This document shows positions 32,935-36,888 of a DNA stretch of 60,753 nt, piece by piece (positions within the stretch are counted from its first letter, which is position 1; every line of letters begins with the position of its first letter). Origin of the DNA: Candidatus Hydrogenedentota bacterium. Lineage in GTDB: Bacteria; Hydrogenedentota; Hydrogenedentia; Hydrogenedentales; CAITNO01. The notes beneath the pieces are model-generated. The model worked only from the letters and a program-made list of their open reading frames with translations, ran no database searches and was not told where the DNA came from. The stretch is taken from contig CAIJOU010000830.1 in assembly GCA_903822375.1 (NCBI GenBank), forward strand, positions 1 to 60,753, written 5' to 3'. A program made the position numbers and the translations under genes.

Positions 32935-33906
32935 TCAGCCGCCCCCGCTCAATTTCCTTGCGGCATCCAGCGCGAAGCTCAGAATGCTTTGCGCCTGTTT
33001 CGGACTCGTCTTGTAGCCCGTGCCCGCCGTCTCCTGGCGAAATACCATGACCTCCGCCTCGGCGTTCACTTCGGACTCGATGACGATCTTGGTTCCGTCC
33101 ACTTTGACGGCCGGCCCGGGGTTTACGTTCACCCGGGCCAGCTTGTCGGCCAGGCCGAACCCGGGCTTCGCCACAAGCACGCAGTAGGCGTAGGGATAGT
33201 CGCTGCCCTGCACGCTGTTGATGGCAATCTGAATCTGGAGCCCGTGGAACCCCTCGGGCGCCTTGGGAAACCGGACCATGGCCTTGACGTCCCGCGGCAC
33301 CTTCCCCCCCGTCTCGACGGGAGCGGTCTGCATCTGAAACTGAAACTGCTCGTCGGACTGCGCCTGAGCGTTATAAGACGCGTGCAATTGCAGTATCAGG
33401 TTGGTCTTGATGACGAGTGCATTGTTCTTGAGAACGGAGCGCAGGCCGGTCACCCAAAAGGGCAGCAGCGCCGCGGCGGAATCAAACGCGATTATCTGTC
33501 CAAGGCTCGTGCCCAGCCCGCCCATGCGATAAGACAACCAGCCCAATCCGGCGGCCAGTGCGGCAAGGGTGACAAAACCCAGACCGTTCGAAATGTCCAC
33601 GGCGTCGACATCCCATCGGCTCTGTTTGCTGTCAATATCGAGAATGCGCTGCACGTCCTCCGGGCGCACGGAACTCCATTCCGTGCTTCCGGCCACCGGC
33701 CGGGCAACGTTCTGATAGCCGCGCGTGGTCAGCAGCAGCACGCCGGCGAAAATGGCCACGACGCCCGCCCAGAGCACGCCGTAGGCCTGGACCATCACGC
33801 CCGAGAGAAGCAGCGACCCGGAGAGCAGTATGCGCACCGGGTAGGGCAGGTTGCGCAGGACATGAAAAACGATCTCCTGCTTTCGGTCAGCCGCAGACAT
33901 CAGCAT
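32935..33906 (-). CDS. Polytopic membrane protein of unknown function, third gene of the Cys/His-tail operon
   Basis: About 4 TM segments followed by a ~170-aa soluble C-terminal domain. GAGGAGG RBS 6 nt upstream of the ATG at 33906. 20-nt overlap with the radical SAM gene's end. Confidence 0.7.
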   Translation of the reverse strand: MLMSAADRKQEIVFHVLRNLPYPVRILLSGSLLLSGVMVQAYGVLWAGVVAIFAGVLLLTTRGYQNVARPVAGSTEWSSVRPEDVQRILDIDSKQSRWDVDAVDISNGLGFVTLAALAAGLGWLSYRMGGLGTSLGQIIAFDSAAALLPFWVTGLRSVLKNNALVIKTNLILQLHASYNAQAQSDEQFQFQMQTAPVETGGKVPRDVKAMVRFPKAPEGFHGLQIQIAINSVQGSDYPYAYCVLVAKPGFGLADKLARVNVNPGPAVKVDGTKIVIESEVNAEAEVMVFRQETAGTGYKTSPKQAQSILSFALDAARKLSGGG

Positions 33907-35218
33907 GACAGGCCTCCTCAAGTTCGGCGCAGCCGAAATGCCGCCAGTACAGGGGGCAGGCCCCCTGGCACAGCGCAAAGTCTTCACAGGTTTGGCATGA
34001 TTCCGGGGCAAAACGCTTTTCGCGCAGCCACTTGCCCTGAACGGAATTCCAGACGCTTCGAAAATCGTCGCGCAACAGGTTGCCGACCGGTTCGGGCCAG
34101 CTGGAGCAGGGCAGCACGTCACCGGACGGCGATACCGACAGCAGCCCGTCGCAGGCCGCACAGCCCTTGTTGCCCAGCCGGTGCAGTATCGGATTGAACA
34201 GGCAGACGGGCGTGGGCGAGTACCACATGAATTTGACACCCGCCGCCTCGGCGGCCTGCTGGACCTTCAGCACGTGGTCGCCGATTTCGGTGTATGTCAC
34301 ATTAATGTCGTCGCTGGTGGCGGCGGCCGCCGTGGGAATCACGAGGTTCATCGACAACCGGGTGAGGCCGAGTCCCTGGATGAACGCGGGCATGGCTGCG
34401 GCGGAGTCGAGATTCATGCGGTTCAGCGTGGTGTTTGTGTGCACGCGGATGCCGCGGTCCTTGAGCAACCCGACCGCGCGCACGGCCCGCTCATGGGCGC
34501 CTTCGCACCGCACGAGCGCATCGTGCACCGCCGCCAGCGGCGCCTCGACGCTCACCTGGGCGCTGTGCAGACCGGCCTCCGCAAGCGCATCGGCCAGCGG
34601 TTCGTCAATCTTCGTGCCGTTGGTGATCAGATTCACCCGCATGCCCAGATCATGCCGCGCGTGGCGCACCCATGCGGACAGTTCGGGCCGCAGCGTGGGT
34701 TCGCCGCCGGTGAAGCTGACGCTGGGCACCTGGGCATCCTCGCGGATGATGCGCAGAATGCGCCGAATCTCCCCGTCGCTCATGTCCCCGGCAGTGCCCT
34801 TCTTGCAGGAACAGCCGGCGTAACAGAAGCGGCAGGCCAGGTTGCACCGGTAGGTGACCGCCACCTCGCTGAGCACGGGCAGGCTGTTGAAGCCGAGGCC
34901 GAAAGGGCGCACGGTGACGGCGCGCGGAAGGTCCCGCTCGTTCACGCAGCCCTGCAGCAGGCGCTTGAGCGCGACGAAAAAGTCGTAAATGTCGCGGCGC
35001 ACCGCCGGGGTGCCGCCGTGGCGCTTCCAGTAATCGGCCACGCTTGCGCCGTCGAGCAGCGCCTTGAGCATGCGCGCGCCGGACGGGTTCAGCTTGTGCG
35101 CCTCGTTGGGCACCTTGATCAGCAGGCAGTCCTCCTCGCGCACGAAAATGAATTCGCGCAGCCGCGCCGCGTAGGCGTCGATCCAGTCGAGCGGACAGCT
35201 TTCACAATCGTCGCCCAT
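33887..35218 (-). CDS. Radical SAM/SPASM enzyme with an N-terminal PqqD-like RRE domain
   Basis: RRE-like segment LLIKVPNEAHKLNPSGARMLKALLDGASVADYW.. (nt ~34948-35146). Radical SAM motif YRCNLACRFC with SFTGGEPTLRPEL. SPASM Cys clusters (GCAACDG..SPSGDVLPCSS..CQTCEDFALCQGACP). Its ATG overlaps the upstream stop (TGATG at 35216-35220). Confidence 0.85.
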   Translation of the reverse strand: MGDDCESCPLDWIDAYAARLREFIFVREEDCLLIKVPNEAHKLNPSGARMLKALLDGASVADYWKRHGGTPAVRRDIYDFFVALKRLLQGCVNERDLPRAVTVRPFGLGFNSLPVLSEVAVTYRCNLACRFCYAGCSCKKGTAGDMSDGEIRRILRIIREDAQVPSVSFTGGEPTLRPELSAWVRHARHDLGMRVNLITNGTKIDEPLADALAEAGLHSAQVSVEAPLAAVHDALVRCEGAHERAVRAVGLLKDRGIRVHTNTTLNRMNLDSAAAMPAFIQGLGLTRLSMNLVIPTAAAATSDDINVTYTEIGDHVLKVQQAAEAAGVKFMWYSPTPVCLFNPILHRLGNKGCAACDGLLSVSPSGDVLPCSSWPEPVGNLLRDDFRSVWNSVQGKWLREKRFAPESCQTCEDFALCQGACPLYWRHFGCAELEEACHADVCG

Positions 35219-36888
35219 CAGTGTGAATCCCCGCTGACGCAGGCCGAATGGCAGGCGGAATGGCAGGCGTCGTGGCACGCCGAGTGGCAGGCCGAATGGC
35301 AGGCGTCATGACACGCCGAGTGGCACGCATCGTGGCAGGCCGTGTGCTCGAAGCACCCCTTTACGGTGGCGCCGGAAATCGTAGGATTGGTGTACTGCGT
35401 GTAGGTCATGTTGCCATAGTCCTGGCCGAAATAGGTCCCGTAGTAGAAGGGGGACCTCCCCCACTGCATGCCGCCGTAGTCCATCTGCCGGGCATCCTCT
35501 TGACGCGCCGTTTCATCCCGCCGGGCCGTCTGTCCGGCCGGGGCGTTCAACTCGCCCACCATGTCGCGGTAGAAAGCCTTGGTGGCTTCCAGGTCGCAAT
35601 CCCACGCCTCGGTTTGCAGGTTCTTGCACAGCAGCCGGTAGACTTCGTCCATCTCGGGACGGGTCAGGTCGCCGTCATTCTGCACAAACTGGAACACGGC
35701 CTTTTCGTAGGCGTTGGGCAGGTCGGGATTGGGCTGAAGCGCCCTGCACTGGAACGGCGACTGGCTGGTGACCTCAATGGCCCCCAGCGTTTCCAACCGC
35801 ACCACAATCGCGCTCAGGATGTCGCCAAAGCGCACATCGCACAGGGTGCAGGCCTCGTAGAGGTCAAGTTTGGCCACCTTGCCGGGCTTGCGGAAAGTGG
35901 ACACCTCAATCTGCGGCGGCACCCAGTCCTCGCGCGCCCACTGGATTTCCTGGAGCCCGTCGCGCGCGCGAAGCATCGACCGGTTCTTAAGCTGCGACAC
36001 GATCATGACCAGCAGCACGAGAAATACACCGAAACCGACGACGTAGAGCTTGTAGCGCACCCTGGCACTCGCAGGCAGAGCGTCGCCCCCTGGCGGGGTG
36101 AAGCCAATGCGCGAACTGGAAACGGGTGAGCTGTCTGTCGGCGCCCCCACAGGCTGCGTTTCCACCGGTTGCACTTCTTTCGGGGCAGTTTCCGGGAAAA
36201 TCGAGGCGTCGATGTATTGCTTGATCTGGAAGTGGTAGAGGCTGGGAACATCCTTCCGGTGGAACCGAACCGTCAGCAGGTTCTTGTCCTTGAACGGCTG
36301 TCCGTAATAAGAGATGAGGTATTCCGTATTCATGAACTTCTCGGTCATGAACTTGTACGGTTTCATCTGTTCCAGCGTGAGTTCCCCGGCGGGTATCTCT
36401 TTGGGATACATCACGCGCACGGTGTAGTGTTCCAGCGGGTCCTTCCACTGCACGGGCGCCCAGTCCAGATAGGCCAGGGATTCATCTTTGGCCTGCGTGA
36501 ACCCGGCCTCACCGGTATCCCGCAGGTTGATATAGTAAGAGAATCGGTAGACCACGTCGCCGGAATCGATAGCGCGCCCGCCCGCGAGGACGATGTCCCA
36601 TTTCCTGTCGCCGACCGCCGTGATGGTCACGGGGATGCCGTCGCCCTTGCCGTCAAGGAAGGCCTTGGCGGTGTCGGTGTAGAACTGCGGCAGGCCCCCG
36701 ACCCCTTCAAAGTAAAAACCGTGCAGGCCGCCCAGCGACTGGTAGCAGACGTTGTACACGACGATCGCGCTCATGTCCGGATTGAGGAGCATGTTCGCCT
36801 CGGCCCAGCGCGCCTTGCCCGCCGCAAACCCGATGCTGGCATGCAGCACGACCGCCAGCAGAATCACGATTGTCCGAATACGACCCAT
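35218..36888 (-). CDS. DUF2207-like single-pass membrane protein ending in an (A-C-H-D/S)n Cys/His repeat tail
   Basis: Signal peptide [24 protein letters not shown], a ~250-aa exported domain, a Pro-rich linker and one TM ([22 protein letters not shown]). A ~215-aa predicted cytoplasmic region follows. The tail is [46 protein letters not shown]. Start trimmed from 37149. The DUF2207 assignment is by resemblance only. Confidence 0.75.
   Translation of the reverse strand: [556 protein letters not shown]
35239..35346 (-). repeat. 12-nt-period coding tandem repeat (9 x C-A-x-H read on the minus strand)
   Basis: On the plus strand the sequence reads GCAGGC(C/G)GA(A/G)TG / GCA(C/G)GC(C/G)(T/G)(C/A)(G/A)TG repeated with period 12 from 35239 to 35346. 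Confidence 0.85.

Follow-up and report, generated by a model that had tools for sequence, protein, structure and literature searches.

Enzymes that combine a radical S-adenosylmethionine (SAM) core with a SPASM domain are mainly known as maturases of small secreted peptides that are synthesized by ribosomes and modified after translation (RiPPs), and few of them, such as anSME and QhpD, act on proteins. QhpD makes Cys thioethers. The targets of the ACGX system carry Ala-Cys-Gly-X repeats, and the substrates PapA and NxxcA are short peptides that are processed to free products. PapB makes six CX3D thioethers (PMC9413430), NxxcB joins Asn-Cβ to Cys-S (PMC11851443), and the characterized radical SAM enzyme HaaB links His1-C2 to Ala3-Cβ on the HAA motif (PMC11499958). 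We analyzed a 60,753-nucleotide stretch of DNA from a Candidatus Hydrogenedentota bacterium (assembly GCA_903822375.1, contig CAIJOU010000830.1, forward strand; the whole stretch is called the window below) and found a three-gene cassette in which the gene for a membrane protein with a C-terminal Cys-His ladder (A) is followed by the genes for a radical SAM/SPASM enzyme (B) and a second membrane protein (C). The ladder and B occur together across distant loci, and from this gene linkage we infer that B acts on the tail of A.

On the minus strand, the three follow one another in head-to-tail order:

35218..36888, minus strand: gene A, 556-residue bitopic membrane protein with a Cys-His ladder tail (open reading frame [ORF] and homologues)
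33887..35218, minus strand: gene B, 443-residue radical SAM/SPASM enzyme, with its ATG inside TGATG (profile matches)
32935..33906, minus strand: gene C, 323-residue membrane protein with four predicted helices and a beta-sandwich predicted to be cytoplasmic (AlphaFold2, hydropathy)

The two gene overlaps named in the first-pass annotation, which had been made from the letters of the window, were both found. The A/B junction reads TCACAC TGATG GGC, with the TGA of A sharing bases with the ATG of B, and the ATG of C, at 33906, gives an overlap of 20 nucleotides with the end of B. At the other loci, A and B either overlap by up to 4 nucleotides or are separated by up to 2, with one exception (L002, gap of 39 nucleotides), and the B-C overlap is conserved at 17 to 23 nucleotides.

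The Ladder Tail of A

35221..35355, minus strand: tail of A, residues 512 to 556, one Cys followed by (CH[DS]A)x8 and CVSGDSH (sequence)
35239..35337, minus strand: ladder proper, residues 518 to 550 (sequence)

The spacings between successive Cys residues in the tail are 6, 4, 4, 4, 4, 4, 4, 4 and 4. The ladder reported in the first pass is there, but its ten Cys at strict i,i+4 spacing are nine, with the tenth six residues upstream, and eight of the ten, not nine, are followed by His: the first Cys precedes Phe and the last precedes Val. At the DNA level, the ladder is a tandem repeat with a period of 12 (35239..35304), and a DNA pattern of three units matched the window six times compared to 0.00 matches expected from 100 shuffles. 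A 12-nucleotide repeat of this kind could in principle be an artefact of the DNA. However, the units vary synonymously (GCC/GCG, TGC/TGT, CAC/CAT and TCG/TCC), and thus the ladder is kept at the protein level. These codon differences, together with the conservation of the ladder in 100 non-redundant tails, led us to rule out a microsatellite artefact.

The same 100 tails define the unit in the family. Position 1 is Cys in 100%, position 2 is His in 97% and otherwise Tyr, position 3 is Ser (77%), Asp (13%), Asn (5%) or Gly (2.5%) and also Ala, Gln, His or Thr, and position 4 is Ala in 99.9%. The ladders have 8 to 11 Cys residues and nearly always end in C-V-S-G-G-x-[H/R]. Ladders of 8, 9 and 10 Cys are each common, suggesting that the Cys residues are not used in pairs. 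The replacement of His by Tyr is seen in N-terminal units, as in CYSAC, and some N-terminal units have Tyr or Phe. In an irregularly spaced stretch, C-Y-V-H-T-A-C, the distance of three residues from His to the following Cys is kept, as is the aromatic residue directly after the preceding Cys; because this placement persists where the spacing breaks, the unit can be read as H-x-A-C. Furthermore, a semi-conserved [YF]xxF[MLIV]xS element lies 14 to 27 residues upstream of the ladder in ~56% of the tails and is a candidate recognition sequence.

In one family member (L135:2-274), the ladder continues as ...ACVSGGGGSSGGGGSSGSW / GGGGSSGGGGSSGSW. This continuation resembles what we take to be the Gly-rich tail of ordinary DUF2207 proteins, which hints at a common ancestry of the tails.

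Linkage of A and B Across Loci

A degenerate DNA pattern for four ACHx units hit at least 120 metagenome loci. The counts in this paragraph were made among the matches listed. Ninety of these were genuine tails, and the 30 loci not counted as such were mostly unrelated low-complexity translations (ACHR, ACHP, ACHI); two of the 30, L047 and L132, probably do carry a real tail and were missed by the filter. A homologue of B was present in 60 of the 60 genuine-tail loci with at least 1.5 kb of downstream sequence, and a detectable C in 31 of the 37 with at least 3 kb. Intact tail carriers were ~500 to 780 residues long, with a median of 575 residues for the 51 carriers with a closed 5' end, and no small-peptide version of the ladder stood beside B in any of the 90. 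Three short carriers (181 to 282 residues) look like frameshifted assemblies, and for two of these, A-like matches also occur beyond the ORF. The carrier lengths are consistent with the earlier proposal that the target is the tail of a large membrane protein and not a small leader-core peptide.

Nine loci were inspected individually, and all nine have both a tailed A and B. Two were reached through A homologues (L001 and L002), three by way of B homologues labeled as Hydrogenedentes, Planctomycetota and Bathyarchaeia metagenome-assembled genomes (MAGs) (L004, L005 and L006), and four belong to Clostridia. The gene maps of the first five show a ~550-residue gene, then B, then a ~320- to 340-residue gene. 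The Clostridia with the cassette, found in a scan of GTDB genomes, are a Clostridium sp. MAG, Thermoclostridium, Herbivorax sp. ANBcel31 and Acetivibrio straminisolvens JCM 21531, and their four tails end in ...ACVSGGAR. The scan of genome contigs with B as a single protein required exact 8-mers and had a low yield (four true orthologues). The first protein search with A returned only 11 homologues (P0001 to P0011; 26 to 49% identity to the window's A over alignment A1), which we attribute to the word prefilter and not to rarity.

The tail was present in every full-length A homologue with an intact C-terminus except P0011 (L154:1634-3154). This sole tail-less homologue keeps the cytoplasmic domain, is followed by a convergent gene and has no B (a single case). 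The co-occurrence of the tail with its radical SAM neighbor, on which the first-pass proposal depended, was therefore found in the tail-anchored loci and in the inspected loci alike. It also survives changes in gene order and the replacement of C: one clade (L079, L108, L067 and L068) has the genes as A-C-B, B lies upstream of A in L085, and in a divergent clade (L036 and L085) a ~415-residue coiled-coil protein takes the place of C while A and B are still together. The cassette proteins have named relatives in MAGs of Hydrogenedentes, Planctomycetota, Verrucomicrobiae, Elusimicrobia, Spirochaetia and Firestonebacteria, thus spanning several phyla, and the locus proteins are only ~25 to 50% identical to those of the window. 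Adjacency of A and B without meaning, or a ladder that is a mere DNA repeat, is difficult to reconcile with complete co-occurrence over such distances, with the synonymous codon differences and with zero pattern matches expected by chance; we regard this explanation as effectively refuted.

In the divergent clade (L036:6486-11176 and L085:149-5963; also L087, L094 and L095), the A-like carriers are 596 to 673 residues long, and some tails end in ...ACVSHF. The ~415-residue coiled-coil protein showed weak zinc-ribbon or ATG17-like matches, and a PspA/IM30 gene lies upstream in L085.

Architecture of the Tail Carrier A

36208..36819, minus strand: exported beta-sandwich domain, residues 24 to 227, DUF2207-N-like (AlphaFold2 predicted local distance difference test [pLDDT] mostly 80 to 94)
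35989..36054, minus strand: single transmembrane (TM) helix, residues ~279 to 300 (hydropathy; AlphaFold2 helix 276 to 313)
35545..35946, minus strand: conserved cytoplasmic domain, residues ~315 to 448 (invariant or near-invariant columns in alignment A1)

Hydropathy analysis of A showed a hydrophobic signal-like segment at residues 1 to 26 and one further TM segment at ~277 to 302, in agreement with the first description of this 556-residue protein. The stretch after the TM segment, however, measures ~254 residues and not the ~215 given for the C-terminal region. The beta-sandwich resembles the N-domain of M1 aminopeptidases and ribophorin I (Foldseek, E = 2.5e-6, probability 1.0). The domain that follows the membrane helix has the conserved pattern W..DW.PP..VSTFRK.GKVA and a winged-helix-like part, with AlphaFold2 pLDDT of ~70 to 86, and matches TIGR04222 weakly (E = 0.0045, 16.6 bits compared to a cut-off of 43). 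A low-complexity linker rich in Tyr, Arg and Asp connects it to the ladder. This topology suggests that the N-terminal domain is exported and that the tail is cytoplasmic.

The window's A received no Pfam or NCBIfam family assignment, and it did not match Pfam DUF2207 (PF09972) even at E <= 10. PF09972 was matched by six of 12 A homologues, with a best E of 4.6e-5.

The Radical SAM/SPASM Enzyme B

34889..35218, minus strand: extension of B resembling a RiPP recognition element (RRE), PqqD-like, residues 1 to 110 (marginal profile match and homologues)
34823..34846, minus strand: CX3CX2C radical SAM motif, C125/C129/C132 (invariant in 50 homologues)
33956..34204, minus strand: SPASM region, C339, C353, C356, C371, C408, C411, C417 and C421 (eight Cys invariant in 50 homologues)

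B matched the radical SAM family PF04055 (E = 8e-27), the SPASM family PF13186 (E = 1.2e-8, 35.5 bits compared to a cut-off of 21.5) and the SPASM domain model TIGR04085 (40.1 bits compared to 27). The SPASM-region Cys set includes CX2CX5CX3C. The radical SAM and SPASM parts of the architecture assigned at first thus score above their cut-offs, whereas the RRE part is marginal in the window protein; 12 of 50 close homologues match PqqD (PF05402; best E of 9.2e-7).

The best NCBIfam score of B was with the radical SAM/SPASM protein of the GeoRSP system (127.2 bits compared to a cut-off of 400), followed by AhbD (120.9 compared to 500), NirJ (104.2) and NirJ2. Other scores were 96.5 for PqqE (cut-off 381.35), 92 for MftC (265), 73.2 for the ACGX radical SAM model TIGR04340 (400), 64.8 for anSME (349.45) and 62.1 for the PapB family (340). 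The closest sequence matches with a solved structure reached 52 bits at most, and no cyclophane synthase was found among the best 25 NCBIfam matches. We rejected the assignment of B as anSME, PqqE, MftC, AhbD, NirJ, PapB, SCIFF maturase or ACGX radical SAM enzyme, as every score was far below its cut-off. With anSME, PqqE and MftC among the models not reached, B lies, as anticipated, outside the families with another established substrate.

The SPASM region alone scored 31.4 bits with SbtM, 23.2 with anSME and 13.2 with QhpD (cut-off 453). The first two scores, and the two-cluster SPASM layout common to B and anSME, would suit an enzyme that modifies the tail without a crosslink, making formylglycine as anSME does or thio-oxazole as SbtM does, or catalyzing epimerization. 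However, both scores are more than 10-fold under the family cut-offs, the anSME target motif C/S-x-P/A-x-R is absent from the tail, and such chemistries leave the invariance of His and Ala unexplained. We consider a modification of this type improbable.

The presence of the haem enzymes AhbD and NirJ among the best matches of B is also what one might expect if the tail were an unmodified metal-, Fe-S- or haem-binding ladder and B had another role or substrate, for example cofactor loading. Cys and His are classic ligands, the i,i+4 spacing would put all Cys residues on one helix face (AlphaFold2 has a low-confidence helix here), and C-H-S-A-C-H could be taken for variants of the CX3CH haem motif. 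On the other hand, AhbD and NirJ score ~4- to 5-fold under the cut-off, B has a peptide-binding, RRE-like domain fused to it, and ligation does not explain an Ala that is 99.9% conserved. The commonness of 8, 9 and 10 Cys speaks against such a ladder as well. The haem reading in particular is unlikely, considering the odd ladder lengths, the terminal C-V without the His that CX3CH needs, and the predicted cytoplasmic tail, as opposed to the extracytoplasmic site of known cytochrome c maturation. In addition, the hosts include cellulolytic Clostridia, which to our knowledge are not noted for c-type cytochromes. Taken as a whole, a ligand ladder left unmodified by B is highly improbable.

Proposed Maturation of the Tail by B

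On balance, we lean slightly towards a self-contained three-gene module in which B matures the tail of A with one short-range crosslink per H-x-A-C unit, the thioether being the favored type. Every refutation test that could be computed came out in favor of B maturing the tail, and at the level of sequence this interpretation is supported. B would be a maturase of the RiPP type, in which a radical SAM core and a two-cluster SPASM domain follow an RRE-like domain, and it would be synthesized directly after A through translational coupling. It would dock on A, probably at the [YF]xxF[MLIV]xS element and/or the cytoplasmic domain, and would then move along the tail and introduce one intramolecular crosslink per unit, or 8 to 10 per protein. 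The favored chemistry would be a thioether that joins Cys-S to the flanking Ala or to the His three residues upstream, in each case at a carbon; by analogy, the link could run from Cys-S to His-Cβ (H-x-x-C) or to an Ala carbon. C may hold B at the membrane beside A, or it may chaperone the tail. Since the cassette contains no protease or exporter, the modified tail is expected to stay on A, where it might serve as a rigid built-in module derived from Cys and His, with metal or redox activity.

The composition of the unit also bears on a different link. B could be a triceptide-type cyclophane synthase that joins His-C2 to Ala-Cβ in each H-x-A and leaves the Cys residues free as a thiolate row, for example for metal. 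H-x-A is present in every unit, as an aromatic-X-X motif with a fixed His, a middle residue that is Ser, Asp, Asn, Gly, Ala or Gln, and an almost invariant Ala. Tyr can stand for His in the N-terminal units, the Val after the last Cys needs no ring, and with eight invariant SPASM Cys the clusters could be fully ligated. HaaB makes exactly such a link on HAA (PMC11499958). However, a cyclophane alone leaves unexplained why Cys is 100% conserved at strict spacing and why the terminal Cys and VSGG are retained. It is the Cys period that defines other curated Cxxx-repeat radical SAM targets, and known cyclophane synthases are missing from the top matches of B listed above. Because Cys periodicity defines this tail as well as the related curated targets, a thioether is slightly favored over a cyclophane, which we judge rather unlikely; the eight invariant SPASM Cys and the H-x-A logic place it close behind.

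Several observations weigh against maturation of the tail by B through thioethers. H-x-A with a variable middle residue suits a His-Ala cyclophane at least as well. The best NCBIfam scores of B, all far below cut-off, are with GeoRSP, AhbD and NirJ and not with known thioether synthases, and the match of the window's B to PqqD is below threshold (E = 0.087; lasso PqqD chaperone, E = 0.021). The eight invariant Cys of the SPASM region would, we assume, suffice for full ligation of both auxiliary clusters, as in anSME or SuiB. CteB reportedly has an open cluster site for the substrate thiolate, and full ligation in B would leave none. Finally, the tail has pLDDT below 50 in the AlphaFold2 model, where residues 520 to 550 are drawn as a helix at low confidence.

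The cassette may represent, although we would not quite wager on it, a widespread unrecognized class of membrane proteins matured after translation, in which B turns the cytoplasmic (H-x-A-C)n tail of a DUF2207-like protein into 8 to 10 contiguous small rings that are never released, as a metal or redox module linking the extracytoplasmic domain to cytoplasmic chemistry. What B is predicted to act on is the tail of a ~550-residue membrane protein, and the cassette has no genes for release or export. If confirmed, maturation of this tail by B would extend RiPP-type chemistry to membrane proteins matured in place, provide the large DUF2207-like group of tailed membrane proteins with its first functional handle, and offer a compact repeat of nine four-residue units as a clean substrate for new crosslink chemistry. 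The proposal is directly testable, as the cassette is present in two isolates, Herbivorax sp. ANBcel31 and Acetivibrio straminisolvens JCM 21531.

Protein C and Neighboring Genes

C was described in the first pass as a four-TM protein with an unknown soluble domain. The AlphaFold2 model (pLDDT 84) indeed shows four membrane-type helices and a beta-sandwich, but the strict hydropathy threshold was passed by the first two helices only. C has no Pfam or NCBIfam match, and its fold has no significant match in the Protein Data Bank (PDB), the best being MscS (E = 9e-3, probability 0.35). By the positive-inside rule, both soluble parts of C would be cytoplasmic. The system is common, as C alone has 547 relatives, counted as representatives of clusters at 50% identity, at E <= 1e-3 (274 at E <= 1e-30). 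No domain fusion was found in the best 150 of the 547, each of which has ~200 to 380 residues.

We clustered the ORFs of at least 100 residues in the 48 loci of at least 8 kb. The recurrent genes were A (46 loci), B (47) and C (39); the rest were antisense shadow ORFs and one gene in nine loci. There was no conserved fourth gene, and no protease or transporter recurred in these 48 loci. The nine-locus gene codes for ~210 residues that include two TM segments and a coiled coil (for example, L045:6504-7136), lies directly upstream of A and overlaps its start. It is confined to the clade with CYSACHNACH tails and has no Pfam match. A 207-residue gene (L154:1014-1637) occupies the same position upstream of the A homologue P0011.

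Expression Signals and Overlapping Reading Frames

36936..36964, minus strand: promoter-like site TTGGCA-17-TATACT (sigma-70-like, 10 of 12 consensus positions; ~48 nucleotides before the ATG of A)

The purine-rich sequence GGAAAGGGCGGAAGA lies immediately 5' of the ATG of A. As consensus matches alone, this stretch and the promoter-like site may be signals for the cassette. Directly downstream of C, there is a 71-residue acidic, Ala-rich ORF (32554..32769, minus strand) with its own promoter-like site (32845..32817). It was not recurrent in other loci, where the clustering took ORFs of at least 100 residues only. Long antisense ORFs cover A, B and C (32905..34197, 34181..35311, 35248..36129 and 36169..36936, all plus strand), and similar ones recur in 24 to 36 related loci. 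We take them for GC-rich shadow frames and not for genes. Rfam and tRNA scans of the window found no RNA genes.

Other Features of the Window

A gene for a protein with PKD and formylglycine-generating enzyme (FGE)-sulfatase domains (37493..38635, plus strand) lies divergent from the A-B-C operon, and a sulfatase gene (1505..3181, minus strand) stands at the start of the window. No FGE-domain gene was found beside the cassette in the maps of L001, L002, L004, L005 and L006, and none was recurrent in the 48 long loci. A three-domain ThiS-ThiF-rhodanese fusion (12797..14386, plus strand) lies close to a class-V aminotransferase of the NifS/IscS type with an N-terminal extension of ~290 residues (15366..17399, plus strand), and the two could be a sulfur-relay pair. 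A 1288-residue ORF (23509..27375, plus strand) has 17 tandem PASTA domains (Pfam E = 1.5e-284), which seems an unusually large number, and near it lies an 836-residue ORF with Big_9 and PASTA domains (18019..20529, minus strand). Over ~8 kb (42001..50000), the AT skew is strongly positive (0.15 to 0.23). This stretch coincides with three consecutive minus-strand ORFs of ~800 residues (42608..45034, 45072..47471 and 47527..49992); the second, the only one of the three scanned, has a YfhO-like C-terminus.

Comparison with Known Systems

anSME, which acts on sulfatases, and QhpD, which acts on the QhpC subunit, are SPASM enzymes whose substrate is a protein that is functional afterwards, as proposed for B. 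Their targets, however, are unrelated to A and have neither a repeat ladder nor a membrane anchor. RRE-dependent RiPP systems have a short leader-core precursor and usually a protease or exporter, and the A-B cassette has neither. In the body of the carrier, A is similar to the proteins of DUF2207 (PF09972) and TIGR04222, which also consist of a signal peptide, an exported beta-sandwich, a TM segment, a cytoplasmic part and a low-complexity tail. The tails of typical members are Gly- or Gly/Cys-rich and are not known to have a radical SAM partner. DUF2207 usually pairs with LemA (PMC12631010).

Among the systems with repeated motifs, the freyrasin (ranthipeptide) pair PapA/PapB and NxxcA/NxxcB form small in-line thioether rings on repeated Cys motifs, to which the ladder can be likened. 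In contrast to their substrates, A lacks an Asp or Asn that could serve as acceptor at a constant distance, and the score of B with the PapB family is low. The triceptides of HaaA/HaaB agree with the tail in the repeated H-x-A, the variable middle residue and the aromatic substitutions; the tail differs in the invariant Cys after each motif and in its large membrane carrier. The ACGX system has a SPASM-type maturase like B, and its targets have Ala-Cys and the four-residue period in common with the tail, but the third residue of the repeat is Gly as opposed to His, the carrier here is a membrane protein, and B falls far short of the ACGX maturase model.

None of A, B and C is assigned to an NCBIfam or Pfam family. 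A literature search, with most subscription journals outside its scope, found no mention of the motif, of the CXXX-repeat TIGR families or of radical SAM enzymes together with DUF2207. In this respect the system is undescribed, as the first-pass annotation had supposed, but curated models (TIGR04117 and PF27846, tSAM_targ_Cxxx_rpt) already cover the concept of a Cxxx-repeat radical SAM target. These targets have C-terminal Cys residues at period 4 and lie beside a radical SAM gene, as in A-B, and no curated model other than theirs reaches the tail; the related TIGR04118 is the AC3_0185 Cys-rich RiPP family. The tail of A scored 13.7 bits with TIGR04117 (E = 0.049) compared to a cut-off of 50, and the model has 98 positions compared to the 556 residues of A. 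PF27846 matched the A homologue P0001 weakly and was also listed for P0003. Beyond what defines the Cxxx-repeat targets, the tail of A has a fixed His and Ala, a DUF2207-like membrane carrier and the conserved partner C.

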